A DNA stretch of 64,000 bases from a bacterium (GTDB lineage Bacteria > Electryoneota > RPQS01), in assembly GCA_018814465.1 (NCBI GenBank), contig JAHIZR010000228.1, positions 173 to 64,172 of the forward strand. Reading direction: 5' to 3'. The translations under genes and the position numbers were made by a program. The notes below the pieces were generated by a model. The model did not search any database, was not told the DNA's origin, and saw nothing but the letters and a program-made list of their open reading frames with translations. How positions within the stretch are numbered: position 1 is the stretch's first letter; every line of letters begins with the position of its first letter. Of this stretch, positions 1 through 25,590 are shown one piece after another.

Positions 1-482
1 ATGCCTGCCCGCAAACCACAACTGTGCATATCTATTGTCTGGATTGCGCCACACTGTAGCTGACCGATGCCTGCCCGCAAACCACAACTGCGTTATCGCA
101 TCGCCCTGCTGCCGATTGACTGTAGCTGACCGATGCCTGCCCGCAAACCACAACTTTACTGTCGGAATGTACGCACGGTCTTTTACTGTAGCTGACCGAT
201 GCCTGCCCGCAAACCACAACATGGCGGCTGGCATTAAGTGTCTCGTAAGTACTGTAGCTGACCGATGCCTGCCCGCAAACCACAACCCTGTCACTCACTT
301 GGATATAGGCTGTCAACTGTAGCTGACCGATGCCTGCCCGCAAACCACAACACCTGCACCCGCGACGATTGCCGCACCGAAACTGTAGCTGACCGATGCC
401 TGCCCGCAAACCACAACCGTTTCCTGCGGGTTATTAGCAGCACGGGACTGTAGCTGACCGATGCCTGCCCGCAAACCACAAC
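1..482. CRISPR. CRISPR array: 8 copies of the 36-bp repeat ACTGTAGCTGACCGATGCCTGCCCGCAAACCACAAC (first copy truncated at the window edge; full copies at 53, 119, 185, 251, 316, 382, 447) and 7 spacers of 29-30 bp. It continues upstream of the window. No cas genes in the window.
   Basis: Identical repeats and unique spacers read directly. The reverse complement GTTGTGGTTTGCGGGCAGGCATCGGTCAGCTACAGT has the GTTGT...GCTACA(A/G)T shape of type II-C repeats, and the 36/30 geometry also fits type VI-B. Confidence 0.93.
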
Positions 483-501: not shown

Positions 502-1620
502 TTAGATACCGCTCAGCGCTTCCTTGGGAAGCGGTAGATCGGCGCTGGCTTTCACTTCAAGACGCTTTAGCATTGCAAGGTTTCGAATCGTCAAAGCCAC
601 TTCAGGTTTTTGCAGCGGAGGACGACGATGCTCTTTCCATGCCATGACCTCCCTAAGGACATCCTGCTCTGTAGGAGTATTTTTTGTGCGCATCGCAAGC
701 TCGTTTCCAGCAAATAGAACAGTGGCTACAATTTCCGCTTGCTGAGTACGCAATCTAACAAAGAGATCGGCTACATTATCCAGAGTTTTTTCCCAATCCG
801 ACAAGTGTTTAGCATATTCCTCCTTAGCGACTTCGTACGATGGCCCCACGCGCACCGCAAGCATCTGGCCTAATCGATTTTCGACAATCAGGCGATGATT
901 CATCAGGCGACTCTCGAGTCCCTTCAAACCTTCAGCGAATGGGCCGTAGCTTCCGCGCCGGAATTCCAATCCCGTCGGGATCCCCTGTAGGGTCGCTACA
1001 TAGGCAATTTTCTGGAACATGACGCGCCCGACCGGCCAGTGATATGGCTCGTCCTCGATTCGCTTCAAGATATCGACTAAGGCGATCCATGCCGGATTGA
1101 TCCGTTCCTTATAAGTATCGGGACGCACAACGCCCGTTCCAGTGTCCAGGAAGCTCAGCTGCATCTCCTCGCAAGGAGTACCGTGCGGCGCATATAACTC
1201 AACGTCAATTTCGAGGCGTTTAAGATAGCGGTTAAGTATGGGACCGACAATTCGCCATTCCAATCCGCCAAGTCCGCTTCCGAGCGGCGGAACTGCGATG
1301 GATTCGATGCCCCACGTTTTGTAGTGTGTTAGCAGGAATTCGAGCCCTTTTTCAATGTCCTCTATTCGCGAGAGCGAACGCCAGTGATCCTTTGTTGGGA
1401 AATTCAGAATCCAGCGATCCGGACTTGACTTGAAGAGATAGGGCTCCCCCAACTTGACTTCTCCTCGTTTACAACGGGTAGTGTAATCGGCGAACATCGC
1501 GGGATAGCGATTCTTGAACTCGAGCGCAATGCCTTTGCCCATCACGCCCACACAGTTGACAGTGTTAACAAGTGTTTGAGCTTTGGAAGCGAAAAGGTCG
1601 CCTGACATTACTTTGAGCAT
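502..1620 (-). CDS. darG: DarG antitoxin (N-terminal macrodomain ADP-ribosyl hydrolase plus C-terminal DarT-binding domain)
   Basis: Macrodomain motif NTVNCVGVMGKGIALEFKNRYP. 372 aa. Lies immediately downstream of darT on the same strand. Confidence 0.85.
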   Translation of the reverse strand: MLKVMSGDLFASKAQTLVNTVNCVGVMGKGIALEFKNRYPAMFADYTTRCKRGEVKLGEPYLFKSSPDRWILNFPTKDHWRSLSRIEDIEKGLEFLLTHYKTWGIESIAVPPLGSGLGGLEWRIVGPILNRYLKRLEIDVELYAPHGTPCEEMQLSFLDTGTGVVRPDTYKERINPAWIALVDILKRIEDEPYHWPVGRVMFQKIAYVATLQGIPTGLEFRRGSYGPFAEGLKGLESRLMNHRLIVENRLGQMLAVRVGPSYEVAKEEYAKHLSDWEKTLDNVADLFVRLRTQQAEIVATVLFAGNELAMRTKNTPTEQDVLREVMAWKEHRRPPLQKPEVALTIRNLAMLKRLEVKASADLPLPKEALSGI

Positions 1621-1632
1621 GATCGAGTTTCT

Positions 1633-2235
1633 CTATTTGAAGAACATTCTTGCATTAACAGTGATTGCCAACGTTGGTGCAAGCGCAGCGAGTCTTCGCC
1701 GAGCAGAATCGCACGAAACGTAGGCTCCCACAATATAATTATCCGGAATGACATTTGGAACCAAAACCTCAGCACACATTCTCGATTTGTGCTCCCATTC
1801 GGCAACTTCGTTTCCCGGATGTTTCCATGATTCTGCGAAGGTATCATTGCCAACCAGCGACAACCCGCTCGATGAAGGGCGGAATCTCGCATATTCGCTG
1901 GAAGCGTTGCGATCCGTAAAAACGACGTTAGGAAGATCAACCACAGTTGGTGAAATCTTCAGTACACAGAGTTCATCGCCAGAGCAAATACCTCCGTGGA
2001 TATCCTTGTACATCATCGGATTCCGCGCGTTGAAGTAGAGATTCACATAATCATGCAAGCGCATGCCCCCTGGAACCACTATAATCTTTCGGCGATCTTG
2101 AATCTCTGGCATAGCAACAGATCTATGCCTGATCTTACAAACACCCGTATGTGAAAGAATGCCGTGCGACAAGATCGACGGTACGTTTTCAATCGCGGTG
2201 ATGTAGTGTAGCTCTGACAGCCGAGATCGTTCCAC
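1633..2235 (-). CDS. darT: DarT ssDNA thymidine ADP-ribosyltransferase toxin (DUF4433). Start codon appears to be GTG.
   Basis: N-terminal HYITxxxNxxSIL motif, VFTDR motif and C-terminal catalytic Glu region (CAEVLV) typical of DarT. About 200 aa. Paired with a macrodomain gene. Confidence 0.82.
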   Translation of the reverse strand: MERSRLSELHYITAIENVPSILSHGILSHTGVCKIRHRSVAMPEIQDRRKIIVVPGGMRLHDYVNLYFNARNPMMYKDIHGGICSGDELCVLKISPTVVDLPNVVFTDRNASSEYARFRPSSSGLSLVGNDTFAESWKHPGNEVAEWEHKSRMCAEVLVPNVIPDNYIVGAYVSCDSARRRLAALAPTLAITVNARMFFK

Positions 2236-2457
2236 AATTACAAGTTGTTAACAGTAGTATTTACATAGATTCATTATGCGAGCGAGTGCTGAAGGGTTCT
2301 TCTGGCGGTTGCAACAGGAGGAGGCTTCGGCGGGAGGAAAAGGAGGGTAAGTTGCCGAGGATTCCCCAAATACAACTTTATCTTACGGCTAACACGGGGT
2401 CAGCCCAATTGCGCAATCTTGACTGGTAGGTCGGACATTAGTATATTGAACACGTGT

Positions 2458-2862
2458 TCAACTTTTCGCGGGTAAGTCTTGAATAAACTTGATAATACCT
2501 CTTCCGGCTTCCACCATTGTTTTTCGGATCAGATTCAGCCGTTCATCATCGATTTCAACGTTTTCGGGGAGGTCGAGTTCGACAACCAACCTTCGCCGCT
2601 TGGTGAGCTTCGTCTCCGCCTGAGACTCGAGGAAGTAGTCTTCGGAGAGTCCTAATGCACTGGCTATAAGACGTAGCGTGCTTTCGTTTGGCTTCCTCGC
2701 ACCGCGTTGAATAGCTAGTAGAGTTTTATCGGATAGTCCTGTTTTTTCTGAAATACGCTTTTTCGCTCCCCATTGCGAAAGCGCAAACTCTAAATCGCTA
2801 TGTTTTTTAATATCCAGCATATAAGAAAAATTTACAGACTTAAATCTGTATTCTATTGACAA
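2458..2862 (-). CDS. XRE/Cro-CI family HTH transcriptional repressor (putative prophage repressor)
   Basis: HTH segment ISEKTGLSDKTLLAIQRG. Divergent from the Cro-like gene at 2990. Confidence 0.7.
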   Translation of the reverse strand: MSIEYRFKSVNFSYMLDIKKHSDLEFALSQWGAKKRISEKTGLSDKTLLAIQRGARKPNESTLRLIASALGLSEDYFLESQAETKLTKRRRLVVELDLPENVEIDDERLNLIRKTMVEAGRGIIKFIQDLPAKS

Positions 2863-2884
2863 AACAGATTTATTACCGTATATT
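2856..2884 (+). promoter_or_regulatory. Sigma70-like promoter (TTGACA-17 nt-TATATT) for the rightward early operon, overlapping ACAGAYTTA operator-like repeats (2834-2849 and 2864-2872)
   Basis: Consensus hexamers with 17-nt spacing read from the sequence. A near-palindrome ACAGACTTAAATCTGT lies adjacent. Confidence 0.45.
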
Positions 2885-2989
2885 GGTTTAGAATCAAATC
2901 AAAACCCCCGACACCTGAGAAATCTTGCCGGATTGCAGGCGACGGGGGCAAAGCTAACCAACAGGGGCTTTGCGCTCCCAGAGGTCTGA

Positions 2990-3310
2990 ATGAAATATAA
3001 AGTAAAGAATGGGCATTGTCAACCTAAGATTTCACTCGACTTAACGAGTAAACAGGTTTGCGAGCTGCTGGGGGTGACGGCCAATTGGCTGAAGAGTCAC
3101 GGTCACCTCTTCAAGCGGCGTCAGCAACCGGGCCGGGGGCGGAACGGGCTGGAGTGGCGTTATGATCGAGCGAATGTAGAATCGTATCGCCGTCACGGAT
3201 ATAGCGAGACCGAACTCGTCGAAAATCCGTATCACGGCAAATCCGTCGCGGAAATCGCGGCGATAGCTAAGGAGAGAGTCAGGCGCGGCCTTGTGAGCAC
3301 AAGCTCATAG
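2990..3310 (+). CDS. Cro/excisionase-like small HTH DNA-binding protein
   Basis: Segment QVCELLGVTANWLK looks like an HTH. It is the first gene of the rightward operon, opposite the repressor. Confidence 0.5.
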   Translation: MKYKVKNGHCQPKISLDLTSKQVCELLGVTANWLKSHGHLFKRRQQPGRGRNGLEWRYDRANVESYRRHGYSETELVENPYHGKSVAEIAAIAKERVRRGLVSTSS

Positions 3311-3364
3311 GGTTCGCGCTTTTTTGTTTTTGATCGAATCCACCAACCCAACGGAGAATGCCAG

Positions 3365-3592
3365 ATGATGATCGAAGAATTCGAACGGATCGAACATGAC
3401 GGAAAGATTTCCGGGGAGCAAGTCAAGGAACTGATCGCGGATGCAATTGAGGGCGCGTACGGCGAACGGCACGAAGTAACCGATCGCGAACTCATCGACT
3501 TTTTCAAATGGGCGACGGAGATGTTTGGACAAGGGGGATGCGAACTTAACGATTTCACGGCACGGTTTCTTATCGCAACTAAGCGCGTTTAA
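3365..3592 (+). CDS. Small acidic hypothetical protein (75 aa)
   Basis: ORF with an RBS-like GGAGAA upstream. Acidic composition. Confidence 0.5.
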   Translation: MMIEEFERIEHDGKISGEQVKELIADAIEGAYGERHEVTDRELIDFFKWATEMFGQGGCELNDFTARFLIATKRV

Positions 3593-3643
3593 GCGCCTTG
3601 CAGGTTTTTAAATAATCCTACCACCCCAAAAAGCGAGAATGCC

Positions 3644-3970
3644 ATGAAGCTTTACAGATTCGAACGAGGAGACAAGGTCCGCCGCCGCGCGGAGTGCGGC
3701 GCGGCGAATCATCCCGCAATCGTCGAAGTGCTCGAATGCGACGAGTTCTGCCTTCGGTTCATCGGCGCTGGGGTTGATCATTTCGGAATTTACGATCCGG
3801 CAAACTATGAACTGGTCGAAGGCGAATGCAGCTACTGCAATGGGATCGGGCACGTCCTCGGGCGCTATTACGGCGAGGGGGAATTCGAGCGGCACACCTG
3901 CCTCGTTTGTCACGGCACGGGCCGGCTCAATTACGATGCATTGAAGGAAGCGAAAGGGATCGCGGCATGA
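3644..3970 (+). CDS. Hypothetical protein with a DnaJ-type CxxCxGxG zinc-finger pair
   Basis: CSYCNGIGH...CLVCHGTGR. Confidence 0.55.
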   Translation: MKLYRFERGDKVRRRAECGAANHPAIVEVLECDEFCLRFIGAGVDHFGIYDPANYELVEGECSYCNGIGHVLGRYYGEGEFERHTCLVCHGTGRLNYDALKEAKGIAA

Positions 3971-4332
3971 TTCGCATACTATTAGTCGAGGACGAACAGT
4001 CCATCCGCGAACCTTTCGCCGAGTTACTCCGCGAGTACGACTACATGGTAGTCACTGCGAATAATGGCTTGACGGCGGCGCAGTATCTCGAAATCATCCC
4101 GATTGATCTGGTCATCACCGACTCGGATATGCCGCTCTGCGACGCGATCGAATTGACGCGCCGAATTCGCAGAGCGAGCGCGGCCCTGCCGGTGATCGCG
4201 ATCTCCGGTGAATGGCAGAACGAAAAGCCGATGATGGAGGCGGGCGCGAATGCGTTTCTGCTGAAGCCGGTCGAAATCGAAGTGCTGATTGGAATGATTG
4301 AAGAGCTCACGAAGAAAGGAGTGGCGGCATGA
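3967..4332 (+). CDS. Stand-alone CheY-like response-regulator receiver (REC) domain protein
   Basis: MIRILLVEDE acidic pocket, DLVITD phospho-acceptor Asp and a conserved Lys in LLKP. ATGA overlap with the upstream gene. The ORF-track alternative at 3826 overlaps its neighbour heavily. Confidence 0.7.
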   Translation: MIRILLVEDEQSIREPFAELLREYDYMVVTANNGLTAAQYLEIIPIDLVITDSDMPLCDAIELTRRIRRASAALPVIAISGEWQNEKPMMEAGANAFLLKPVEIEVLIGMIEELTKKGVAA

Positions 4333-4616
4333 CAAAGGTAGTTCATGTTGAGTTCGATGATTGCGGGGCGGGGTGCCCGTTTCTTGAAAGTACTGAAGGT
4401 GTCAGCGGAGATTTTAACGGATACAGATGTAGAAGGCTCTGGAAAGAAATTTACTTTTCTTCCGGAGTATTCCCTGATGACTGCCCACTGCCGGACAAAG
4501 AAGAACCTGAACTCCCGCCCTGCGAACTGTGTGGAGAGCATATCGCGGGTGGCGAATTTGAGGGTCTTTACATTTGCGGAGATTGCTATCAAGAATTAGA
4601 GTTGCCGACCGATTAA
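4329..4616 (+). CDS. Cys-rich hypothetical protein (putative zinc ribbon)
   Basis: Several CxxC pairs. ATGA overlap with the REC gene. Confidence 0.55.
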   Translation: MTKVVHVEFDDCGAGCPFLESTEGVSGDFNGYRCRRLWKEIYFSSGVFPDDCPLPDKEEPELPPCELCGEHIAGGEFEGLYICGDCYQELELPTD

Positions 4617-4628
4617 GGAGCAGACACG

Positions 4629-5447
4629 ATGATTAAGTACATCAATCAATCACTTTTAAACCTGCATGCCAAATGCGGGATTGCAGCGGAATACCGGGTA
4701 TCAGGGCTCATCATCCCCCCTGCCGCCGCCGCGCATCGCGGCACGGGCGTGCACCGCGCGGCGGAGGCGGACGCGCGGCGGATTCAGTTGAGCAGCGACC
4801 GCTTGACCATTCCGGAATTGCAGGACGCCGCCGCGACCGCGTTTTGTGAGAGCGTCGAGAAACACGGCGTGTATCTGAGCGCCGAGGACGCTCCGCAAGC
4901 GCGAGTTATTCTCGGGCAGGCGAAAGATGAAGCCGTGCGCGCTGCCGCGCTCTACGGCGAACGGGTTAGCCCGCGCATCGGCCAGCCCGTTCATATCGAG
5001 GAAGAGATCGTCGTGCAGATGGACGGATTGGATTATCCACTTGGCGGTACGCTCGATCTCGTTCATCTCGTCACCGCCGGTTACAAAATCACCGATTTAA
5101 AAACGACGGGCAAGGCGCCCGATCCGTCCGTCGCGACCCATTCGATTCAAGCGCCGATGTACGAGCTGCTGGCCGAGCGGGCCTTGGGGTTAAAGCCGTC
5201 GTTCGAGTTCGAGTTCATCAAGCTGCTGAAAACGAAATCCGAGACGATCACGATCCCGGCCGTCTTTACGCCGCAGACGCGCGCGAACCTGCTGCAACGG
5301 GCCAGTGTCTTCGAAGCGCATTTGCAATCCGGGGTGTTCACTCCGGCGGCGCCGGGATCGTGGTGGTGCTCAGAATCTTGGTGCGGCTATTACGGGATTT
5401 GCGCGCACGGCGCGAAGCAGTCCTGCCAGATCGCGATGAGCGCGTAG
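4629..5447 (+). CDS. PD-(D/E)xK exonuclease of the Cas4/RecB/AddB type with an Fe-S cysteine cluster
   Basis: DLVHL...ITDLKT nuclease motifs. One N-terminal Cys and a C-terminal CSESWCGYYGIC cluster. AAGGAG RBS. Confidence 0.7.
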   Translation: MIKYINQSLLNLHAKCGIAAEYRVSGLIIPPAAAAHRGTGVHRAAEADARRIQLSSDRLTIPELQDAAATAFCESVEKHGVYLSAEDAPQARVILGQAKDEAVRAAALYGERVSPRIGQPVHIEEEIVVQMDGLDYPLGGTLDLVHLVTAGYKITDLKTTGKAPDPSVATHSIQAPMYELLAERALGLKPSFEFEFIKLLKTKSETITIPAVFTPQTRANLLQRASVFEAHLQSGVFTPAAPGSWWCSESWCGYYGICAHGAKQSCQIAMSA

Positions 5448-5510
5448 GCTTACGGGTAATTTGAATTGAATCACTTTCACAATCATACTGACTTAAGGAG
5501 AGTACAGATC

Positions 5511-6794
5511 ATGACAGATCAGAACAGCAACGGTCGGGAATTTGAGAATATCCCGATTGTAACGCCGGAAGTCGTCGAGCGCATGTCGGGCGGCGTCAAC
5601 GGTGTCGGCGACATTGTCGCTTCCGGACGGACGATTGAGCAGATCCGGTCGAAATATCACACAGCGGTGCGCGTACAGGTCGCGCGCGATCTGGATTCAG
5701 TGAAGAAGCGCTGTTTGCAGGAGGCGAAGCACGGCGGCGATGAGTTCGGTTGGGCATGGCCTGTCGAGATTCCGGTGAAGGACGAGCGCGGCCAGATCAA
5801 GAAGGATGCGAACGGCAGATGGATCACGAAGGAAGAGATTATCGACGGCAAGAGCGTGCATCTCGCGATGGCCGCCGCGCGCAACTGGGGCAATTGCACG
5901 ACCGAGTTGTACGTGACTGCCGACCTGCCGGATCGCTGCGAACTCATGGGCGTGTTTGTGGATTTCGAGACGGGGTATACGAACATGCGGCCTTATACGA
6001 TTCGGAAGGCGTCGCGAGAACTATCCGAGAAGCAGAAGAAGAAGGCTTCGCAAATCGCGCGGCAGGAGGATATGACCATGCAGATCGGACTATCCAAGTG
6101 CATTCGCAACGTCGTGTTGGGCGCGTTGCCATCGTGGCTGACCGATTCGATGTACGAGGAATCGAAAAAGTACGCCAAGTCCCGCGTCGAGGCAAATCTC
6201 AAGGAATCCATCGAGCGCGCGGTCGCATTGTTCGCCAAATGGGACGTCAATCTGGACCGGCTGGAGATTTTCCTCGATAAACCGCGCTCGAACGATCCTA
6301 AAACGGATTGGAACGCCGACGATGTCTTGAAGTTGCGCGCGGCCTATCAGGCGATTAAAGACGGCGATATGACGATTAGCGAGGCGTTTCCAGCGGTGCC
6401 CGGAGCGCCGATGGCAAAACCCACCGCAACACAGACGACCGCGCCAGAGACGCGAACGCCGCCGCCGCAACCTACGCAACCTGCGGAACCTCCGCACCCC
6501 GCCGCACCGCCGACGCAGACGGCGGCGCAACCGCACGACCCAGACGGCAGCTTGACTGAGGAGCAGGGCGCGATGCTCGACGAGATCAACGCGCGCGCGG
6601 GCTTGATCAGCGCCGATCCGAAGATTCAGCGGGATACGATCTTTCTCTGGAGCGGGCAAACCTGCCGGGGCACGCTCGAACTGCGCAATAAGCCGAACTA
6701 TATCATTCCGACGCTTGATGCCGCGCGGGCCGATTGCGAGGCGCGCGGGCTTCAGCTCGCCGGACAAGGGCCGAAGAAAGGAAAACTTCTGTGA
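5511..6794 (+). CDS. Putative recombination / single-strand-annealing protein with a Pro-rich linker (function uncertain)
   Basis: Sits between the nuclease and the SMC-like ATPase. AAGGAG RBS before the ATG at 5511 (the ORF track starts at 5466). No family recognised. Confidence 0.45.
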   Translation: MTDQNSNGREFENIPIVTPEVVERMSGGVNGVGDIVASGRTIEQIRSKYHTAVRVQVARDLDSVKKRCLQEAKHGGDEFGWAWPVEIPVKDERGQIKKDANGRWITKEEIIDGKSVHLAMAAARNWGNCTTELYVTADLPDRCELMGVFVDFETGYTNMRPYTIRKASRELSEKQKKKASQIARQEDMTMQIGLSKCIRNVVLGALPSWLTDSMYEESKKYAKSRVEANLKESIERAVALFAKWDVNLDRLEIFLDKPRSNDPKTDWNADDVLKLRAAYQAIKDGDMTISEAFPAVPGAPMAKPTATQTTAPETRTPPPQPTQPAEPPHPAAPPTQTAAQPHDPDGSLTEEQGAMLDEINARAGLISADPKIQRDTIFLWSGQTCRGTLELRNKPNYIIPTLDAARADCEARGLQLAGQGPKKGKLL

Positions 6795-8077
6795 GGATTA
6801 TCAGACTGACGGCGGAGAACTTCAAGCGACTCCGCGCCGTCGAAATCACGCCTGACAATAACGTCGTTGTTGTCAGAGGGAAAAACGCGCAGGGCAAGTC
6901 CAGCGTCCTGGATGCGATTTGGGCTGCGCTCGGCGGCAAGCGCGCCGTGCCGGTGAAACCGATTCGCGAGGGCGAGGAGCGGAGCGAGATTACGCTCGAC
7001 CTCGGCGATTACATCGTGACGCGCATTTTCACGGAACGCGATAGCTATCTCACCGTGAAGAACGCGGACGGCGCGCAGTTGCGCAACCCACAAGCCTTGC
7101 TGGACGGCTTGATCGGCGCGATCTCCTTCGATCCGCTCGAATTCGCGCGCATGAAGCCTATCGAACAAGCGAAGCAGCTTGCGGAGATTACCGGCGTGGA
7201 CTTCGCGGATCTCAATCAGCGCAAGCAGGAGCTGTTCGCGCAGCGCACGGAAGTCAACCGCCGCGTCAAGCAGCTGCAAGGAATCGTTGCCGAATTGGAA
7301 GAACAGCACCCGCGCATCGCCAAAGCGAAGCCGGTGGAACCGGGCGCGATCAACGACCTCCTGGCCGAGTACGACCGGGTCAAGAACGAGCATACCGAGC
7401 GCAACCGGGACTTGGAGCGGCTCAATGCGCGCGAACTCGATCTGCGCGCCGTGGAGGATGAACGCGAGCGGCTGTTGAAACGCATCGCGGAGATCGATGA
7501 AAAGCTGGCGCAGGGCTGGAAAGCGCTGGCCGTCGACACCGACGCATTGCAGGAACGCATGAAGCAGTTGCCGGACTTGCCGGAGCTTCAGCAGCGCGTG
7601 CAGGAGGCGGTGAAGGCGAACACGCTGAACGAAACGATTTCGAACTATCGGAAGACGAACACCGAACTCGAAAGCGAGCAGGCGCGTTCGACGTCACTCA
7701 CGAAGCAAATCGAGACGCTCGACAAGGAGAAAGCGGAGTTGCTCAGCAAGGCCGATCTCCCAGTGAACGAACTCGCCTTCGACGAATCCGGCGTGTTTTA
7801 TCACGGGGTGCCGTTCGAGCAGTGCAGCAGCTCGGAGCAGCTGAAGGTCAGCACCGCTCTCGCCATTAGTTTTAATCCGAAACTGCGCGTCATTCGCATC
7901 ACGGACGGCTCGCTCCTGGACGAGGACAGTCTTGAGATCCTGCGCACGATTGCCGACAGTGAGGACTTCCAGATCTGGCTGGAGCGCGTCGATGATAGCG
8001 CGGGTGCGGTCGGCGTGCTGATCGAGGACGGCGAAATCAAGGCCATCAACCGCGAGCAGGAAACGGTCGCGGCTTAA
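6791..8077 (+). CDS. SMC/SbcC/RecN-like ABC ATPase with a coiled coil (phage DNA-repair or recombination ATPase)
   Basis: Walker A GKNAQGKSS, long coiled coil, signature-like SSSEQL and Walker B/D-loop RITDGSLLDED. GTG start at 6791 with an AAAGGA RBS. The alternative ATG at 6734 overlaps the upstream gene. Confidence 0.65.
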   Translation: MRIIRLTAENFKRLRAVEITPDNNVVVVRGKNAQGKSSVLDAIWAALGGKRAVPVKPIREGEERSEITLDLGDYIVTRIFTERDSYLTVKNADGAQLRNPQALLDGLIGAISFDPLEFARMKPIEQAKQLAEITGVDFADLNQRKQELFAQRTEVNRRVKQLQGIVAELEEQHPRIAKAKPVEPGAINDLLAEYDRVKNEHTERNRDLERLNARELDLRAVEDERERLLKRIAEIDEKLAQGWKALAVDTDALQERMKQLPDLPELQQRVQEAVKANTLNETISNYRKTNTELESEQARSTSLTKQIETLDKEKAELLSKADLPVNELAFDESGVFYHGVPFEQCSSSEQLKVSTALAISFNPKLRVIRITDGSLLDEDSLEILRTIADSEDFQIWLERVDDSAGAVGVLIEDGEIKAINREQETVAA

Positions 8078-8424
8078 TTAGCTGCATCGTTCATCTCCGG
8101 CAGTGCCGTGCGCGCCGGGTTTCTGGCCGGGTCGTCATTGCTCGTTACACCCCCTTCCCGCCGGATTGTATGCCAGATAGTTGCCGGTGCCGGTGATGAA
8201 CTCCAAAAGAATAGTCTGCGCCTTCCACTCCGGCGCAAGCGCGATCATCGAGCGCTTATAAAAGCCGTGAGCGCCAGTCGGGAAAGCAATGCAGCCGACA
8301 ATCTCCCTGAAGCGCGCGGGGTGCGGGTATCGTGGAATTGGCATTCTCCGCCCGGCCTCGCGCGCAGACGGGATTACTCCGTCTTTATCGACTCTATACG
8401 AATTAACATAACGAGGAGCATAAC

Positions 8425-8718
8425 ATGGATGCACGCAAGTTCGCGGAATTCGACCGCAAAATCGCCGCCGCGCATTGCCTGCGCGAGGATATCGTCGCGG
8501 CGTGCCGGTCACTGCATATCGCGGCGCAACGCATCGAGCGGGGCGATTTCACTGACCTCGATTCGCTCGCCAATCATTATCAGTTCATCGTCGAGACGCA
8601 GGCGGAACTCGCCGCGAAATTGCAGAAGCTCGCCCTCGCCAGCGGCGCGACGTCCGTCGTGCCGGTCAGCGGCAACGGCAAGGTGGAATTCGCAAGCCCG
8701 GATCCGGCGAACCGGTAG
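8425..8718 (+). CDS. Hypothetical protein
   Basis: GAGGAG RBS. Phage early region. Confidence 0.5.
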   Translation: MDARKFAEFDRKIAAAHCLREDIVAACRSLHIAAQRIERGDFTDLDSLANHYQFIVETQAELAAKLQKLALASGATSVVPVSGNGKVEFASPDPANR

Positions 8719-8726
8719 TCAAGCTC

Positions 8727-9122
8727 GTGGATCGCTCCGTCTATACCGCCTTGATCGGCCTCTTTCGAGATCGCCCGCGCGAACTGGCGATCAAGCGCGC
8801 CGACATTCAAGCGCGCCTGCGGGAGCTCTGCGGCGTGGAGGTGCATGTGCGCGACATCCAAAGCCTTGTCGATCACATAGCGGCGAGCGAACACTGGTGC
8901 ATTATTTCGGAGGCGCGCGGCTATTGGCGGCTGAGCGAGCGGGCCTCCGCCGAGGAGCTCGAAGCCGCCGAACACTCCGTCAACACGTTGCGCGCGCACG
9001 CCGAGGCGGAACTGGAGAAAGCCAATCTGCGCGTGAAATGGATCGATTTGATCCGCGAACTGCGGGAACATCCTGAACGGCAAAACGCGCGCACGACACA
9101 ACAGGAACGGCTATTCTTATGA
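8727..9122 (+). CDS. Hypothetical protein (GTG start)
   Basis: Close-packed with its neighbours. Confidence 0.5.
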   Translation: MDRSVYTALIGLFRDRPRELAIKRADIQARLRELCGVEVHVRDIQSLVDHIAASEHWCIISEARGYWRLSERASAEELEAAEHSVNTLRAHAEAELEKANLRVKWIDLIRELREHPERQNARTTQQERLFL

Positions 9123-9418
9123 CAGATTCGATTCGCCAAACCATGTACCCGGACACCGCCAAGCTGATGGCGGATCTGAATATGCTGGACCGCCTGCTCG
9201 CGCATAACCGCGAGCTGATCGGCGACAACAATCTCAAGCTCGAAGAGTTGCGGCGGCTAAAGCAAGCTTTGCAGGAAACGACCGCGGCGATCAAGGAACA
9301 GGTGGAGATCATTCTGGACCACTGGGACGCGCTGAAGATTGACGACCTTTACTTGCCGTATCGCGTCGCTATCGCCGACGCGCTGGATAAACTAACCGAG
9401 ATGCTTTCCGATGTGTAA
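9119..9418 (+). CDS. Hypothetical protein
   Basis: ATGA overlap. Confidence 0.5.
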   Translation: MTDSIRQTMYPDTAKLMADLNMLDRLLAHNRELIGDNNLKLEELRRLKQALQETTAAIKEQVEIILDHWDALKIDDLYLPYRVAIADALDKLTEMLSDV

Positions 9419-9743
9419 TACAAATATCCATACAATCACCATCACGCCCGACAGCTGCGCTTACGACAAATCCATCCGCGACATTCTGCATGAGGAGCTT
9501 GCAGCCAACAAAATCGAGTTGGACATTCCACTCGTGGATTTCTGCACGACGGCGGGCCTGCGATTGACGCGCAAATTCGAGCAGGAGACAGCGCGCCTTT
9601 GCGCCGAGAACGCGCGGCTACAGGAGGAGCTCGCCGCAACCTGGCGCAGAGCATCATTCAATCGCAGCTGCGCGGAAGGCGGAGAGACGTGGACTCAAGT
9701 GGCCGAAGACAATGCGGCAAATCTCGGCAAGGAGCAGCTATGA
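9411..9743 (+). CDS. Hypothetical protein
   Basis: Overlapping start and stop with its neighbours. Confidence 0.45.
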   Translation: MCNTNIHTITITPDSCAYDKSIRDILHEELAANKIELDIPLVDFCTTAGLRLTRKFEQETARLCAENARLQEELAATWRRASFNRSCAEGGETWTQVAEDNAANLGKEQL

Positions 9744-9937
9744 TCGACTGTGTGCAATGCGACGGTCTGCGTTGGTACAGAAAACTGCTGGCGAGCGGGT
9801 TCGTGCTTGGCATAGTCGCGATTGATGATCAACCGCCCTATTATCGAGAGTACCGATTAATTCAAATGCGTCCATTATCGGCGCCTGTGGAAGCATACCG
9901 CACGTCCATACGGAATCAATGGGAGAACGTTCAATGA
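9740..9937 (+). CDS. Small Cys-containing hypothetical protein
   Basis: GGAGCAG RBS. ATGA overlap with rusA. Confidence 0.4.
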   Translation: MIDCVQCDGLRWYRKLLASGFVLGIVAIDDQPPYYREYRLIQMRPLSAPVEAYRTSIRNQWENVQ

Positions 9938-10401
9938 CCACCCCCTCCGAAATTAAAATCATCGTACCCGGCAAGCCGAACGCGCGCAAGGCGCATAAGA
10001 TCGGCTTAGTCAATAATCCCAAGACCGGAAAACCGGTGCGCAAGCCGCTGTTGAACGACGAGGACGCCGCTTGGCAGAACCTCGTCAAGATGGCCGCGCA
10101 GCAGGCGATGCATGGCGCGCCGCCGCTCGCCGGGCATGTCTGGGCGCATTATCTGTTCATCTTCCCCGCCCCGATGAGCGCGCTGCGCAAAGCCGAGAAA
10201 CTGCTGATTATGAGCGGCAAGACGCTGTTGGCGCAGACGCGCTCGGATATCTGTAATCTGATCAAAAACGCTAACGATGGACTCAAAAACGTGGCCGTGC
10301 AAGACGACCGGCTGATCCGCTCCGGCGGCTTCGATATCCGCGTCGGCTTGAAGCCCTGCGCGATCATCACGCTGCGGCCCATCGGAGAACAGGATCGATA
10401 A
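9934..10401 (+). CDS. rusA: RusA-family Holliday junction resolvase
   Basis: Segment DICNLIKNANDGLKNVAVQDDRLI matches the RusA catalytic Asp and Lys pattern. About 155 aa. Confidence 0.75.
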   Translation: MTTPSEIKIIVPGKPNARKAHKIGLVNNPKTGKPVRKPLLNDEDAAWQNLVKMAAQQAMHGAPPLAGHVWAHYLFIFPAPMSALRKAEKLLIMSGKTLLAQTRSDICNLIKNANDGLKNVAVQDDRLIRSGGFDIRVGLKPCAIITLRPIGEQDR

Positions 10402-10407
10402 AATATC

Positions 10408-10665
10408 ATGAAGCGACAAAACACACCCCTCGTCCCGCAACTCCTGCGCGCGGTGGAAGCCGCCCGTTATCTCGGCGTCAGCCGCAACTTTTTGCAGAAG
10501 CTGCTCGAAGCGGGCACACTGCCTTGCGTGCGCTTGGACGGGTATAAGCTACGCATCGCGAAAACCGATCTTGACCGGTGGGTGCGGAAACAGCGCGGCG
10601 CGTATCGGAAAGTCGCTTCGCGCAACCGCGAGATCCAGAAGCTGCATGCGTACCGCGAGGAATGA
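10408..10665 (+). CDS. Small HTH DNA-binding protein (AlpA/excisionase-like)
   Basis: ARYLGVSRNFLQKLLEAGTLP. Confidence 0.55.
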   Translation: MKRQNTPLVPQLLRAVEAARYLGVSRNFLQKLLEAGTLPCVRLDGYKLRIAKTDLDRWVRKQRGAYRKVASRNREIQKLHAYREE

Positions 10666-11080
10666 TCTGGAGGCGCTGCGCGCCCGTATCATCGCGACGC
10701 TGCGCCGGAGCGCGACGCCACTGCGACCCCGCGAAGTCGCGCAAGCGCTGGGGATCGCGACGGCACCCGGCTATAGCGACGCGGTCACGCGGATCGGACA
10801 ACAACTCGACAGACTCTGGAAGCACGGACATATTCAATGCACGACGCTGCTGAAGAAGCAGCGCAAATACTCGGCAAACCCGGACAGCTATTATGAACAA
10901 AATCCTCTTACTGATCTGCGCGCTGCTCGCGCTGACCGTCTTGACCGCGACTGCCTTTATCCCGCTCCCGCAGCGGCTCAAAGCGAGCCCGGGCCGGCGG
11001 CTAGCCGTGGAACGTACGCTGCATCCGGAAGTGCGGCGCGGCGAAATCCTGATCGCATACCTGGCCGACGCCGCTGGTAA
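10646..11080 (+). CDS. Hypothetical winged-helix-like protein. The reading frame conflicts with the next gene (see findings).
   Basis: By eye, third-position G/C usage reads as coding in this frame up to about 10890 and not after. Confidence 0.35.
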   Translation: MRTARNDLEALRARIIATLRRSATPLRPREVAQALGIATAPGYSDAVTRIGQQLDRLWKHGHIQCTTLLKKQRKYSANPDSYYEQNPLTDLRAARADRLDRDCLYPAPAAAQSEPGPAASRGTYAASGSAARRNPDRIPGRRRW

Positions 11081-11189
11081 TCTGACGGCTACGCGGGCGC
11101 TCGTCGATTCCGTCGCGGCGGATTCGTTTTACATTTACGTCTTTCCCACACATCCTCAACACAAAAGGAAATGTACCAATGACCACTAA
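10893..11189 (+). CDS. Small secreted or membrane protein with an N-terminal signal peptide
   Basis: MNKILLLICALLALTVLTATA is hydrophobic. By eye, third-position G/C usage reads as coding in this frame from 10893 onward. Confidence 0.5.
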   Translation: MNKILLLICALLALTVLTATAFIPLPQRLKASPGRRLAVERTLHPEVRRGEILIAYLADAAGNLTATRALVDSVAADSFYIYVFPTHPQHKRKCTNDH

Positions 11190-11487
11190 TGACCTAAAGA
11201 GAATCGATCAACTGATTCGAGAGCACATCGCGACCGGCGGCGTGCTTACGACCGCTAATCTTTTAGACACCGTGGCCGAATTGCGGCGGCTCGTTTTGAC
11301 AAACGCGCACCGGCTCCCGAAAGCCAAGTATCTCGCCGATCATCTCGGCGCCTGCGAGTCGTGCATTATCGAGCAGAACATCAAGGAAGAAGACAAGCTA
11401 CAGGAGCAACTGCCGCTCGATGCGCCCGAAGCGTTCGACGCGGAATTCGAAGGCGAAGGCACGCACGCGAGCCGGAAGGCGTCATGA
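11179..11487 (+). CDS. Hypothetical protein
   Basis: Overlapping start and stop with its neighbours. Confidence 0.5.
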   Translation: MTTNDLKRIDQLIREHIATGGVLTTANLLDTVAELRRLVLTNAHRLPKAKYLADHLGACESCIIEQNIKEEDKLQEQLPLDAPEAFDAEFEGEGTHASRKAS

Positions 11488-11975
11488 CGAAGCGCACTCC
11501 CGTCACGCGCGATACGCTGATCCGGCTCTGGAACGAGGAACCGCGCAAGGTGCCGCTCGCCGTAATGCTGACGACCGCCGAACTGGAGAGCGGGATCGGG
11601 TCCGGCAGGTACGACGCGACCGCCGAGCGTTATGAAGAGCACTTGAAGGCGCGGCGGCAGGATTGGTCGGCGGCGGATTGCACGAGCTACGGTTTGTTTC
11701 AGATACTTGGCATTAACTGGCGATCCATCGGCATAGAGTACGCGATCTACCCGGATCAACACATCGTCTTCGTCGCTGGCACGTCGCCGCTCTCGCTCGA
11801 TGATCTGCTTCGCGTGCAGATGCGAGCCTATGACCGGTTCATGGGCGCGCTAATCCGCAAGCACGGACTGCCCAAGGCGTTTCGGATCTATAATGGAGCC
11901 GGACCGGCAGCAGACCGATATCGTGACCGCGCGCAGAAAGTACAGGCACGACTCACGAAGGATCTCGTCGCATGA
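11484..11975 (+). CDS. Putative DUF3380-type N-acetylmuramidase (endolysin candidate)
   Basis: Motif TSYGLFQILGINW resembles the SWGxxQIMGFN motif of DUF3380 muramidases. Start at the ATG at 11484. Confidence 0.45.
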   Translation: MTKRTPVTRDTLIRLWNEEPRKVPLAVMLTTAELESGIGSGRYDATAERYEEHLKARRQDWSAADCTSYGLFQILGINWRSIGIEYAIYPDQHIVFVAGTSPLSLDDLLRVQMRAYDRFMGALIRKHGLPKAFRIYNGAGPAADRYRDRAQKVQARLTKDLVA

Positions 11976-13663
11976 ACGAACTTAAATTTACGCTCGGAAC
12001 CGGCATCACTTCCCGCGCGGCGATTACGACCGACATCCATAAACTGATCGTGACGCGAATGGTGATTCAAGCGAATTCCGGCGCGGGTAAATCGCGGTCG
12101 ATGCGCAGAATCCTCGAACAATGCTTCGGGAACGCGCAGGAGATCGTGTTCGACCCGGAAGGCGAATTCGTTTCACTCGCGGAGAAATTTGACTTTCTCA
12201 TCGTCGGCAAGGGCGGTCATCTGCCGGTGCGCGTCGATACCGCCGAGCTGCTCGCCCTGAAGCTGCGGCAGTTGGGCATTTCCGCCGTGCTCGATCTTTC
12301 GGACCTCCGCCCGCTCGAACGCACAGCTTACATGAAGGTCTTTCTCAACTCTTTGATGCTCGCGCCGAAGGCTCCGGAACGGCCTTGCCTCGTGGCGATT
12401 GACGAGGCGGACATGTTCGCGCCGCAGAGCCGGGAGTCGCAATCCACGGAAGCGGTCGTCGATCTGTGCGTCCGGGGCCGCAAACGCGGTCTGTGCCCCA
12501 TTCTCGCGGTCATGCGGCTGTCGCAACTACACAAGGACGCGGCGGCGCAGTGCAACAACTACCTGATCGGACGCACCGCGCTCGACGTGGATATTCATCG
12601 CGTCGTCGACATTCTCGGCTTTCAGCGATCCCGGGACCGGGTCGCCACGCTGAAAACTCTGAAACCCGGCGAATTCTTTTTCTTCGGCCCGGCGAGCAGC
12701 TCGCACGACGTCGAACTGCTGAAAGTCGGTGACGTGCAAACCTATCACCCGGATGCCCGCGCGCGCGAGGTCAAGCCGGTATCGACGCAAAGCCCGGCGG
12801 TCAAAAAAGCGCTCGCGCAACTGCAGGATTTGGCGGAAGAGGCGGAAGAGAAGCGGCAGACCGAACAGCAGTTGCGGGACAAAATCCGCGAACTGGAAAC
12901 GCAAGTCCGATCTTTCGGGAAAAACGCCGCCGATCCGAAAATCTTAAGCGACTTGCGCAACCAGAATCTGCAACTGCGTGCCGAACTGAAAGCCATGCGG
13001 GCACGGTATCATTTCATCTTGACCGAGATGAATGTGATCAACGACAAAATGGCCGGACTGATCGAGCGCGAAAAGGCAGAGAACCTTGACGAGATCGCCG
13101 AGCTTCCGTTCATCGACGAGCCGCCTGCCGTTAGCCGTCAATCCGCTTTGGAGGCGGTCTCCCCCACGCCGTTATCGCACTACAGCCAGCAATCAACCAT
13201 CGATTCGCTGACGCCGCTGGCCGCGAAGTTGCTGCGCGCCGTCGTGCAATTCCATCCGAAGCCGGTGAAACTGCGCCGTGCCCTGCTCATCGCGGGTGTC
13301 TCCCCGCGAAGCAGCAACGTCGGGAAGTTCAAGAAAGACTTGGTCGCTCAGGGATATGTCGAGATCAACGGCCAATGGATCACCGCGACAAAGGCCGCGC
13401 TCGCGGCGGTCGGCGATTATACGCCCTTCCCCACCGACGCTAAGTCGATGATCGCCTCGGTTAAGTCGCTCTTCGATCCGAGCACGGCGAACCTGCTGGA
13501 AGCCATCTATCAGCACCCTGGACTCGTGAAGGGCGCGTTGCTGGACTTCGCGCAAATCAGCCGCACGTCGAGCAACGCCGGACGCTGCTTCAAGGAGCTC
13601 CGCGAATACGGCTTGATCGAACAGCGCGGCGAACGATTCTACTTGAGTGAGGAATTCAGTTAA
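11972..13663 (+). CDS. HerA/FtsK/DUF87-like P-loop NTPase with coiled coil and C-terminal winged-helix domains
   Basis: Walker A QANSGAGKSRS and Walker B LVAIDEADMF. A coiled coil follows, then repeated wH-like segments. Confidence 0.6.
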   Translation: MNELKFTLGTGITSRAAITTDIHKLIVTRMVIQANSGAGKSRSMRRILEQCFGNAQEIVFDPEGEFVSLAEKFDFLIVGKGGHLPVRVDTAELLALKLRQLGISAVLDLSDLRPLERTAYMKVFLNSLMLAPKAPERPCLVAIDEADMFAPQSRESQSTEAVVDLCVRGRKRGLCPILAVMRLSQLHKDAAAQCNNYLIGRTALDVDIHRVVDILGFQRSRDRVATLKTLKPGEFFFFGPASSSHDVELLKVGDVQTYHPDARAREVKPVSTQSPAVKKALAQLQDLAEEAEEKRQTEQQLRDKIRELETQVRSFGKNAADPKILSDLRNQNLQLRAELKAMRARYHFILTEMNVINDKMAGLIEREKAENLDEIAELPFIDEPPAVSRQSALEAVSPTPLSHYSQQSTIDSLTPLAAKLLRAVVQFHPKPVKLRRALLIAGVSPRSSNVGKFKKDLVAQGYVEINGQWITATKAALAAVGDYTPFPTDAKSMIASVKSLFDPSTANLLEAIYQHPGLVKGALLDFAQISRTSSNAGRCFKELREYGLIEQRGERFYLSEEFS

Positions 13664-13735
13664 TGATTTCGAAGCAGTGGTCGATTTGACCAGAATAATC
13701 CGTAAACACGAATCACCAATTACAGAGGAAAGCAA

Positions 13736-14014
13736 ATGAGTCCCCAACATCTCGGCAAGCACGCCCAGGACAAAATCACCGGGTTTAAAGGTATCGTTAC
13801 CGGCGAGATCGCCTATATCACCGGATGCGATCAGATCCTCATTCAGCCGCAGGGTCTCGACGACAACGGCAAGCCGTTCGAAAGCCGTTGGTTCGACATC
13901 TCCCGCTGCGAAATCGGCGACGAGATTCTTTACGAGCCTTTGCGGCAAGTAGAGCCGGGCGCGGATCGTCCCGGCGGCCCCGGCGACGAGAACCCAACCG
14001 ATCACGTTCGATAG
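13736..14014 (+). CDS. Hypothetical protein
   Basis: AGGAAAG RBS. Confidence 0.5.
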   Translation: MSPQHLGKHAQDKITGFKGIVTGEIAYITGCDQILIQPQGLDDNGKPFESRWFDISRCEIGDEILYEPLRQVEPGADRPGGPGDENPTDHVR

Positions 14015-14026
14015 TTATTCAGAGCC

Positions 14027-15237: not shown

Positions 15238-15292
15238 CGAGAGATTACTTCTTTCGCCGCGCAATCCCGTCATGATCACTTAACTCACTCAC

Positions 15293-17867: not shown

Positions 17868-17870
17868 CTC

Positions 17871-19801: not shown

Positions 19802-19822
19802 CCGTTCCGAAAGCAAATCGCA

Positions 19823-21621: not shown

Positions 21622-21628
21622 GCAAGGC

Positions 21629-22483: not shown

Positions 22484-22518
22484 CGCTATTCCCCTCCAAA
22501 GGGGCATCCCCCAAAAAA

Positions 22519-22558: not shown

Positions 22559-22566
22559 AACAGGCC

Positions 22567-25584: not shown

Positions 25585-25590
25585 CGGCGC

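Follow-up and report, generated by a model that had tools for sequence, protein, structure and literature searches.

A DarT-DarG operon downstream of a prophage repressor gene, most likely carried as swappable phage cargo

DarTG systems and their occurrence in prophages

The two classes of DarT-DarG (DarTG) toxin-antitoxin systems share a DarT-family toxin, the reversible ADP-ribosylation of DNA bases and a phage-defence logic. A macrodomain antitoxin is the defining mark of DarTG2, the thymidine class, and DarT1 modifies guanosine (PMC11543638). The DarTG2 systems compared here are those of Thermus aquaticus and Thermus sp. 2.9, Rv0059-Rv0060 of M. tuberculosis, the DarT-macrodomain fusion of Thermosipho africanus and DarTG2 of E. 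coli; DarTG1 is represented by the DarT1-NADAR pair of E. coli C7. The presence of DarTG within a prophage has a precedent in the Desulfovibrio piger prophage 11311_P3 (PMC12724379). Likewise, UViG 2757320525_000004 of IMG/VR (L220) carries DarTG directly after a tyrosine integrase. For the position next to a repressor an example is the rexA-rexB pair of phage lambda, which directly follows the repressor gene within the immunity region, co-oriented with it, and is a prophage moron co-transcribed with the repressor.

The operon described here lies near one end of a window of 64,000 nucleotides, the whole stretch of DNA that was analysed. Its two genes constitute an intact, ordinary member of the DarT-DarG family that is probably prophage cargo. 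Like 11311_P3 and L220, it shows DarTG at the edge of a predicted prophage, but the host lineage and the phage are different, and the L220 DarTG is 43% identical and adjoins the integrase rather than the repressor. Similar to lambda rexA-rexB, a defence or exclusion pair is situated directly 3' of the repressor, on the same strand and inside the immunity region, whereas the proteins and their mechanism are unrelated and what else the leftward arm would contain, namely integrase and att, is missing here.

Organization of the locus

The features of the locus, in order of position, are as follows.

1..482, minus strand: CRISPR array, 8 copies of the 36-nt repeat ACTGTAGCTGACCGATGCCTGCCCGCAAACCACAAC
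502..1620, minus strand: darG, ATG start, 372-aa antitoxin with macrodomain and C-terminal domain
1171-1620, minus strand: N-terminal macrodomain of DarG (about residues 1-150), carrying N22, K29, K77, H79 and W80
About residues 160-350 of DarG, minus strand: C-terminal domain, corresponding to the DarT-binding domain
1633..2235, minus strand: darT, GTG start, predicted 200-aa DNA ADP-ribosyltransferase toxin of DarT2 type
2236..2457, minus strand: spacer of 222 nt between repressor gene and darT
2419..2461, plus strand: promoter-like element (TTGACT-17-TATATT) with palindrome TTGAACACGTGTTCAA, conserved
2458..2820, minus strand: XRE-family repressor-like HTH protein of 120 aa, ATG at 2820, longest ORF reaching 2862
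2821..2989, no strand: immunity switch region with promoter-like sites and operator-like inverted repeats
2990..38121, plus strand: prophage body, G+C 0.60

The original prediction, made from the sequence alone, had described a DarT-like ORF of 200 aa followed by a DarG-like ORF of 372 aa, co-oriented with a prophage repressor and 222 nt downstream of it. Both ORFs occur at 1633..2235 and 502..1620 of the minus strand, and darT does lie in the orientation of the HTH ORF (2458..2862, minus strand) and 3' of it by the 222 nt of the spacer. The genes share one strand with darT upstream and a gap of 12 nt, an arrangement that is usual in the family, as darT precedes darG by 5-20 nt in 71 of 80 homologous DarTG loci.

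The same prediction had taken the low G+C of the pair as support for horizontal acquisition. The values for DarT (0.479) and DarG (0.513) are indeed below that of the phage body (0.598), but the argument for acquisition is invalid because they match the host backbone (0.517 over 48281-64000).

The toxin DarT

The residues on which DarT had been recognized are all in place, namely H10-Y11-I12-T13...N17..S20-I21-L22, V105-F106-T107-D108-R109 and E156. A profile search for DUF4433/DarT, proposed earlier as a check, gave 135.6 bits with PF14487 (cut-off 22.5, E=2.4e-39), aligning DarT residues 10-186 to positions 1-183 of the 201 in the model. The Pfam matches of DarT (2.4e-39) and Macro (4.2e-18) and the PADLOC matches of DarT (E=4.5e-37) and DarG (E=1.2e-94) are far above chance. 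DarT nevertheless falls under the equivalog cut-off of NCBIfam NF048013 toxin_DarT, with 109.9 bits vs 150 (E=1.3e-31, alignment 1-201 of 204), and is a divergent member of its family; its GenBank name, 'DUF4433 domain-containing protein', fits this score.

Among solved structures, the DarT sequence matches PDB 7omu (1.5e-17) and 7omv (4.7e-11). A single-sequence AlphaFold model was unusable (pLDDT 30), and an alignment-based AF2 model (pLDDT 95.8, pTM 0.91) was taken instead. Foldseek retrieved 7omu (TM 0.86), 7omv (0.83), 7omy (0.82) and 7yk3 (0.81) with this model, each at a probability of 1.00. The superposition called for in the original prediction hence gave an ART fold, with TM 0.86, 0.83 and 0.81 to the DarT proteins of Thermosipho, Thermus and M. 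tuberculosis and 0.63 to DarT1. The fold is that of the solved DarT2 proteins, but the sequence differs from them considerably, at 20-28% identity in structural alignments.

The key residues of DarT are R49, Y67, N110 and E156. In the alignment, R49 corresponds to Thermus R51, Y67 to Y71 and E156 to E160, the catalytic equivalent that had been sought; E156 also falls on the E-to-A position of 7omu. In Thermus, E160 is the catalytic glutamate, R51 the proton-abstracting arginine and Y71 the NAD-stacking tyrosine (PMC5179494, PMC11543638). In 61 of 61 homologues R49, Y67 and E156 are unchanged, and across a set of 116 they are invariant or almost so. An insertion of four residues, D78-G81, is rare within the subfamily of this DarT.

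The antitoxin DarG

DarG scored 297.4 bits with NCBIfam NF048014 antitoxin_DarG, over the equivalog cut-off of 250, and the match extends over DarG residues 3-348 and model positions 2-338 of 338. The suggested search with Macro and DarG C-terminal models thus returned Pfam Macro for the N-terminal part and NF048014 over both domains, and DarG is full-length, with a macrodomain and a C-terminal domain. It also matches PDB 5m31, 5m3i and 7omu at e-34 to e-40.

The macrodomain motif noticed earlier is present as N22-C-V-G-V-M-G-K29-G-I-A-L-E-F-K36. N22, K29, K77, H79 and W80 align to N22, K29, K80, H82 and W83 of the Taq protein (5m31), of which K80 is the catalytic lysine of a TARG1-like macrodomain and N22, K29, H82 and W83 belong to the ADPr pocket (PMC5179494).

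Class, relatives and proposed mode of action

The gene order of darT then darG, a DarT of about 200 aa with the ART fold (TM 0.81-0.86) and the R/Y/E set, and a DarG with a TARG1-like catalytic-lysine macrodomain and a C-terminal domain are all as in DarTG2. Unlike DarTG1, the locus has a macrodomain antitoxin instead of NADAR, a tyrosine in place of the DarT1 serine at the Y71 position and a fold distant from DarT1 (TM 0.63). A NADAR or YbiA domain was not matched in Pfam and NCBIfam, and the Macro match is present. By these characters the module is assigned to DarTG2, the macrodomain class, and is presumably thymidine-specific.

DarT is an ARTD-type ADP-ribosyltransferase that, by homology, would use NAD+ for attaching ADP-ribose to thymidine of single-stranded DNA, and this modification would block DNA replication. 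The DarG macrodomain, with K77 as the putative catalytic residue, may strip the ADP-ribose off the DNA, while the C-terminal domain is predicted to bind DarT and to cover its DNA site. DarT is thus expected to be toxic and DarG to rescue the cell. In a lysogen, darTG might be expressed by read-through from the repressor promoter, which would make it co-transcribed with the repressor, or from a weak promoter of its own. Upon phage infection DarT would be freed and would modify the phage DNA so that no progeny results, as in characterised systems. An anti-phage role of the abortive-infection type is likewise suggested by analogy with characterised DarTG (PMC11543638, PMC10760071).

The closest known relatives of this DarTG are 69-73% identical and belong to bacterial genomes without a link to this phage; among the 80 nearest DarTG loci, not one has genes of the phage. 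Of 34 matches in IMG/VR, only four are full-length relatives, the best of them at 43% identity. GenBank already lists both proteins, under generic names. These entries were reached by a cluster look-up, and an exact-sequence look-up of DarT, DarG and the repressor in the contig index found no record. The system is a known one and changes nothing in what is known of DarTG; what is unusual is contextual, i.e., the lack of an integrase, the CRISPR array right beside darG and a conserved antisense promoter accompanied by an operator-like palindrome.

The repressor, the spacer and the immunity switch

The 120-aa HTH protein is a 100% match to P0001, hits Pfam HTH_3 (E=1.1e-05) and is classed in PHROGs as a transcriptional regulator. 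Its homologues (48-60% identity) are divergent from the early genes of related phages in the contigs L086, L143 and L144. The gene is a phage gene, as these homologues adjoin the early regions of related phages in three contigs independent of each other. A role as dedicated regulator of DarTG was ruled out, as a homologue occurs in none of the 80 DarTG loci.

The switch region contains face-to-face promoter-like sites at 2856-2884 (plus strand) and 3022-2994 (minus strand) and operator-like inverted repeats at 2829-2884, and shares 75% DNA identity with its counterpart in L086. At the other end of the repressor gene, about 2400-2457 of the spacer is conserved phage DNA and the phage homology stops at about 2400. 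The junction of the DarTG cassette would accordingly fall within 2236 to about 2400. A promoter scan of the minus strand of the spacer (2236..2457) found neither a terminator-like site nor a strong sigma-70-like promoter for darTG. The architecture of promoter-like element plus palindrome at 2419..2461 recurs in L143, L144 and L086; the palindrome pattern itself was found in only two of the 257 fetched loci and once in the window. The promoter-like element reads into the repressor gene from its 3' end and would therefore yield an antisense transcript.

A variable slot after the repressor in related phages

The contents of the slot directly after the repressor differ among the related phages. 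In L143 it is empty. In L144 it holds an HSDR_N_2 (HsdR_N-like nuclease) gene, after which come genes for a membrane protein, for an HTH protein and for a tyrosine integrase, and in L086 a caspase-like gene with a type II R-M system, its REase matched at 8.5e-103 and its MTase at 8.5e-85. Two independent relatives, L086 and L144, thus have defence-type genes directly after the repressor on the same strand, and that of L144 is inside the prophage, between repressor and integrase. This variation supports the reading of DarTG as cargo of the slot. As related phages hold other defence genes there, and DarTG is 3' of the repressor and co-oriented with it, the operon is most likely prophage cargo. 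To judge from the three phages, the site immediately following the repressor serves for swapping in defence genes, and the locus would add to the documented cases in which temperate phages swap their defence cassettes at a fixed hot spot next to the immunity region.

The close relatives in IMG/VR were not found by single-protein searches (p442, repressor, AAA447) but were recovered by an alignment-based search. Three further contigs with AAA447 relatives (L254-L256) all stop where the early region begins, with the slot outside.

Prophage body and left border

The prophage body encodes an HTH_17 protein, a receiver-domain protein, a PD-(D/E)XK exonuclease, a protein in the annealase position, an AAA ATPase, RusA and an endolysin. 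Further products are a HerA-like ATPase, an HNH nuclease, TerL, a portal, a head protease/capsid protein, a tape measure and a tail fibre. Neither an integrase nor a transposase turned up among about 40 phage ORFs scanned with Pfam and PHROGs. The membrane/HTH/integrase module of L143 and L144 is absent here, and a tblastn search of the window with the integrase, HTH and membrane proteins of L144 gave no match. The idea of a Mu-like transposable phage was rejected for lack of a DDE transposase.

A search for att sites as exact direct repeats of at least 11 nt between 480-3100 and 37000-48500 gave chance-length matches only, up to 13 nt, and the tRNA-Pro gene (47368-47442) has no further copy in the window. 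The breaks of L083, L084 and L085, short contigs of the same population (window positions 37679, 37789 and 2894), were considered as att positions and rejected, because no sequence is common to their ends and fragmentation is general in the assembly.

The adjoining CRISPR array

A CRISPR array, a feature absent from the original prediction, ends 19 nt away from the stop codon of darG. The array has spacers of 29-30 nt, and the first of its eight repeat copies is cut by the window edge. The geometry, with 36-nt repeats and spacers of about 30 nt in an array that runs off the window, resembles type II(-C), and the array strand was assigned solely by resemblance to type II-C repeats. The window contains no cas genes and no anti-repeat, and Rfam gave no match. 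The repeat had 0 matches in both IMG/VR and the JGI metagenome contigs; no spacer matched the window at up to 8 mismatches, nor any of the 257 fetched loci. The vicinity of a CRISPR array was seen in one of 80 DarTG loci and is not a recurrent context.

It is rather unlikely that the leftward arm is a composite cargo, in which DarTG and a cas-less type II-like array would occupy the stretch from the repressor to an unseen integrase and attL beyond the contig end. If it were so, the phage would arm its lysogen with an abortive-infection toxin-antitoxin pair and with spacers that borrow the Cas9 of the host, and its expression might be tied to the immunity switch via the antisense promoter and palindrome conserved at 2419-2461.

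Origin and role of the module

The claim that DarTG sits in a position typical of prophage defence cargo holds as far as the place beside the immunity region and the varying slot of L143, L144 and L086 are concerned. The evidence leans towards DarTG belonging to the prophage; carriage is likely yet unproven because there is neither an integrase nor an att site and a CRISPR array abuts darG. The closeness of the array implies that DarTG could be host DNA beside a truncated prophage. It is less likely that the pair is a host-chromosomal defence system in a small islet with the array, merely abutted by a prophage that is truncated or integrase-less on this side, so that the repressor and the conserved element downstream of it are the last phage DNA. 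The G+C of DarTG (0.48-0.51), near that of the host and away from that of the phage, would suit this, as would the end of phage homology and the relatives in genomes unconnected with the phage. Cargo genes, though, are usually unlike their carrier phage in G+C, and an array next to DarTG is rare among its homologues. Moreover, L086 and L144 also place defence-type genes right after the repressor, those of L144 within the prophage, which argues for cargo.

As to the role of the module, a use other than defence has been considered. DarTG was first described as a growth-controlling toxin-antitoxin system (PMC5179494), and the V. cholerae DarTG limits the loss of its own mobile element (PMC10760071). 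With a prophage that has no recognisable integrase, the module might then chiefly serve addiction and stabilisation, or growth and replication control, of the prophage and the CRISPR locus. This is doubtful as the primary role, since it is compatible with defence, both DarTG classes protect against phage when tested (PMC11543638) and the R-M system in the equivalent slot of L086 points to defence cargo. Far less probable is a DarT that is inactive or targets a base other than thymidine, the module then not being DarTG2 in function. The score under the equivalog cut-off could be read in this way, as could N110, an asparagine at the position of the thymine-contacting H119 of Thermus, as in the guanine-specific DarT1. 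Asparagine as a sign of guanine specificity was rejected, since M. tuberculosis DarT has it too; the same holds for Thermosipho DarT, and both are partnered with macrodomains. Y67 agrees with Y71 of DarT2, where DarT1 has serine (PMC11543638), the DarT1-type aspartate two residues past the catalytic arginine is absent, and the fold is nearer to DarT2 than to DarT1. The catalytic lysine of the partner macrodomain is intact, and DarG does not cleave guanine-ADPr (PMC11543638). All catalytic residues of DarT are intact, which speaks against an inactive toxin. The source bacterium is uncultured and of FCB type, with T9SS sorting domains.

DarT and DarG

The two genes below form an intact, somewhat divergent DarTG2 module, a known system that the original prediction called correctly.

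502..1620, minus strand, darG (antitoxin), 372 aa
1633..2235, minus strand, darT (toxin), 200 aa, GTG start

The 200-aa DarT reading frame is present as had been claimed, with all of the quoted motifs, and it matches the Pfam DarT model (PF14487) at 135.6 bits (E=2.4e-39; gathering score 22.5) and the PADLOC DarT model at 4.5e-37. By sequence, DarT also matches two solved structures, the DarT-macro fusion of Thermosipho (7omu, 1.5e-17) and the DarT of Thermus (7omv, 4.7e-11). Its NCBIfam toxin_DarT equivalog score of 109.9 bits lies under the 150-bit cut-off, and it is therefore a divergent family member. The predicted 372-aa DarG with an N-terminal macrodomain was likewise recovered, scoring 297.4 bits across the full NCBIfam antitoxin_DarG equivalog model (cut-off 250), and 1.2e-94 with the PADLOC DarG model. 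Its first 150 residues are a macrodomain (Pfam Macro, 4.2e-18) that matches those of DarG from Taq and Mtb, 5m31 and 5m3i (e-34 to e-38). Residues N22, K29, K77, H79 and W80 align with Taq N22, K29, K80, H82 and W83, of which K80 is catalytic (PMC5179494). A macrodomain antitoxin defines the DarTG2 class, with reversible ADP-ribosylation of thymidine; in DarTG1 the antitoxin is a NADAR protein and the nucleoside modified is guanosine (PMC11543638).

Compared with family members, both genes are full length, and the gap between them is 12 nt. Across 80 genomic loci from many phyla, taken as DarG relatives at 51-69% identity, DarT lies directly upstream of DarG in 71, mostly with a gap of 5-20 nt. 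GenBank already lists the proteins, from an unclassified bacterial MAG (contig of 65,216 bp), as MBU0691508.1 (DarG, ‘macro domain-containing protein’) and MBU0691509.1 (DarT, ‘DUF4433 domain-containing protein’). The latter is called at 179 aa, from a start 21 codons too far downstream that loses the conserved E8-I21 segment; the GTG at 2235 is backed by alignment with at least 60 homologues. Other parts of the window are 99.85-100% identical to contigs of GCA_018822485.1 and to the Logan assembly of SRR2540949.

About 30 of 34 DarG matches in IMG/VR (L221-L253) span the macrodomain alone (residues 1 to about 145), some of them in viral contigs of 200 kb or more, and about 13 of these loci have a distant DarT-like match nearby. 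Such matches would fit orphan phage genes of DarG type that act as antitoxins or in anti-defence.

Fold, base specificity and proposed action

DarT was aligned with 60 DarTs from homologous loci plus PDB fragments (61 sequences) and with 115 database homologues (116 sequences). R49, Y67 and E156, equivalent to Thermus R51, Y71 and the catalytic E160, are invariant across the 61 sequences; catalytic roles of these Arg, Tyr and Glu residues have been described (PMC5179494, PMC11543638). E156 also aligns with the Glu that is replaced by Ala in the 7omu crystal construct. An AlphaFold model from the single sequence (pLDDT 30) was replaced by one built with the 116-sequence alignment (pLDDT 95.8, pTM 0.91), which was compared with the PDB by Foldseek.

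TM-scores of PDB structures to the DarT model
Thermosipho DarTG (7omu): 0.86
Thermus DarT (7omv, 7omy): 0.83, 0.82
M. tuberculosis DarT (7yk3): 0.81
E. coli C7 DarT1 (8baq): 0.63
Cholera toxin, pertussis toxin, Tpt1: about 0.35 or below

The predicted fold thus superposes on Thermus DarT as proposed. Given this fold and the HMM matches, neither of the outcomes named beforehand as contrary to the assignment, a lack of DarT and Macro hits or a fold that is not ART-like, was found.

At the position of the thymine-contacting H119 of Thermus, the window DarT has Asn (N110), as does the guanine-specific DarT1. However, it has neither the Ser that is specific to DarT1 at the Y71 position nor the DarT1 Asp two residues past the catalytic Arg, and Asn at the H119 position also occurs in the M. 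tuberculosis and Thermosipho DarTs, both of which are macrodomain-partnered. Thymidine remains the best inference for its target.

Family membership, fold, catalytic residues, two-domain antitoxin and conserved operon architecture are all those of DarTG. By analogy with characterised homologues (PMC5179494, PMC11543638, PMC10760071), DarT would use NAD+ for the ADP-ribosylation of thymidine within a short motif of ssDNA, which stalls replication, while the DarG macrodomain would reverse the modification and its C-terminal domain would block the DNA-binding site of DarT. Phage infection would free DarT, leading to modification of the phage DNA and to no release of progeny. The module may also serve, secondarily, to stabilise the region.

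The immunity region

2419-2461, promoter-like TTGAC-N17/18-TATnTT and palindrome TTGAAC-N4-GTTCAA (equivalents in related phages: L143 1208-1251, L144 5907-5951, L086 7066-7115)
2458..2862, minus strand, HTH ORF (repressor), 134 aa
2829-3022, immunity switch, with operator-like inverted repeats of ACAGA/TCTGT half-sites (2829-2884) and face-to-face 11-of-12 sigma-70-like promoters at 2856-2884 (plus) and 3022-2994 (minus)

The HTH protein, whose true start is likely the ATG at 2820 (120 aa), has only three relatives among 5.8 billion proteins. Those that could be placed are divergent from homologous phage early genes, and the HTH gene is therefore the regulator of the phage's immunity region. 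The facing promoters resemble the convergent-promoter switch of the P2/186 type. The repressor lies 222 nt from darT on the same strand, as claimed. On the minus strand of this spacer no terminator-like site was found, nor any strong promoter in a scan for sigma-70-like sites, in a host that may use non-canonical promoters; read-through from the repressor promoter is a plausible route to darTG expression in the lysogen.

In each of the four related phages the promoter-like element with its palindrome comes after the repressor, or after the repressor and one further gene; it was not found in the other fetched loci. Transcription from it would enter the repressor gene at the 3' end and is thus predicted to be antisense; a possible role is that of an antisense or anti-immunity promoter plus operator. 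Its conservation takes the phage homology in the window to about 2400, which places the DarTG cassette junction within 2236-2400.

DarTG as probable prophage cargo

Related phages with repressor homologues, and the genes that follow the repressor on the same strand
L086: repressor 60% identity, HTH_17 52%, exonuclease 40%, AAA 58%, switch region 75% DNA identity; followed by a 104-aa membrane ORF, a TM protein plus a caspase-domain protein, and a type II R-M system (slot 6727-10594)
L143: repressor 49%, HTH_17-like and AAA in common; no cargo, followed by a membrane protein, a small HTH protein and the contig end
L144: repressor 48%, HTH_17-like and AAA in common; followed by a 285-aa HSDR_N_2 nuclease-like gene (slot 5948-6805) and L143-type membrane and HTH genes

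On comparison of these loci, the position just after the repressor is a slot whose content varies and in which defence-type genes recur, a reading supported by the conserved element found in all four phages. The R-M system of L086 is well matched (REase 8.5e-103, MTase 8.5e-85), and in L144 the slot is bounded by the repressor on one side and, beyond the membrane and HTH genes, by a tyrosine integrase (PF00589, 3.5e-12) that is followed by host-like genes. For the two L086 genes encoding the TM and caspase-domain (Peptidase_C14) proteins PADLOC gave no match, and they could form a defence pair not described before.

Lower G+C had been put forward as a sign of horizontal acquisition. This argument fails, as the values for DarT (0.479) and DarG (0.513) agree with that of the host backbone (0.517) as closely as they depart from the phage (0.598). 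The slot comparison is the stronger evidence. The claimed defence-cargo position gains from the variable slot of the relatives, but two features of the window tell against it. L143 and L144 have a tyrosine-integrase arm downstream of the repressor, whereas the window lacks the whole membrane/HTH/integrase module, and darG abuts a CRISPR array. Moreover, none of the closest DarTG loci has genes of this phage. DarTG is somewhat more likely than not prophage cargo, in which case the prophage would have lost its integrase arm or would have it past the end of the contig. The less likely alternative is host DNA adjoining a truncated prophage. Prophage-borne DarTG has been reported in Desulfovibrio piger (PMC12724379) and follows directly after the integrase in the IMG/VR prophage L220, and so is not new in itself; notable here is the context of a missing integrase, an abutting CRISPR array and a predicted conserved antisense promoter with palindrome.

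The CRISPR array

1-482, CRISPR array, eight copies of the 36-nt repeat ACTGTAGCTGACCGATGCCTGCCCGCAAACCACAAC, spacers 29-30 nt

The array, which the original prediction did not mention, runs past the left window edge and at its other end lies 19 nt from the darG stop codon. Its geometry and reverse-complement repeat termini (GTTGTGG...GCTACAGT) resemble those of type II-C repeats. The window holds no cas genes, anti-repeat or self-targeting spacer, and the repeat has no match in IMG/VR or JGI metagenome contigs. An array occurs within 10 kb of just one of the 80 DarTG loci, hence CRISPR adjacency is not a trait of the DarTG family.

The prophage body and its flanks

The phage region (2990-38121, plus strand, G+C 0.60) comprises roughly 35 kb with a full structural module.

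Phage genes, in order
HTH_17 protein, receiver-domain protein
PD-(D/E)XK exonuclease, annealase-position protein, AAA ATPase
RusA, endolysin, HerA-like ATPase, HNH nuclease
Large terminase, portal, ParB-methyltransferase, head protease/capsid protein
Tape measure, tail fibre

No integrase, excisionase or transposase was detected in the prophage, no att-like direct repeats were found, and the window has no second copy of its tRNA-Pro (47368-47442). The receiver domain of the early operon is a stand-alone response-regulator type (3967-4332), and the gene between those for portal and head encodes a fusion of a ParB-like nuclease with a DNA methyltransferase (19823-21235). Three tandem copies of a 33-nt unit, which has a sub-period of 11 nt, occur at 14637-14737, inside a 289-aa ORF (14368-15237) with a weak PHROGs match to a replication initiation protein; these units are candidate iterons of an origin located in the initiator gene.

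Between the right end of the phage and tRNA-Pro sit the four large minus-strand genes of a low-G+C block (38202-47981; 0.45), which looks like a separate genomic island. Two of them have T9SS C-terminal sorting domains, one being an LVIVD-repeat beta-propeller, and a TnsD-like HTH fragment lies just past the tRNA (47541-47981). At the other flank, independent assemblies of this phage lineage (L085, L254, L255 and L256) repeatedly break where the early operon starts or shortly ahead of it, L085 beginning at 2894. The breaks suggest either that the population varies in its immunity and cargo region or that the genome physically ends there.
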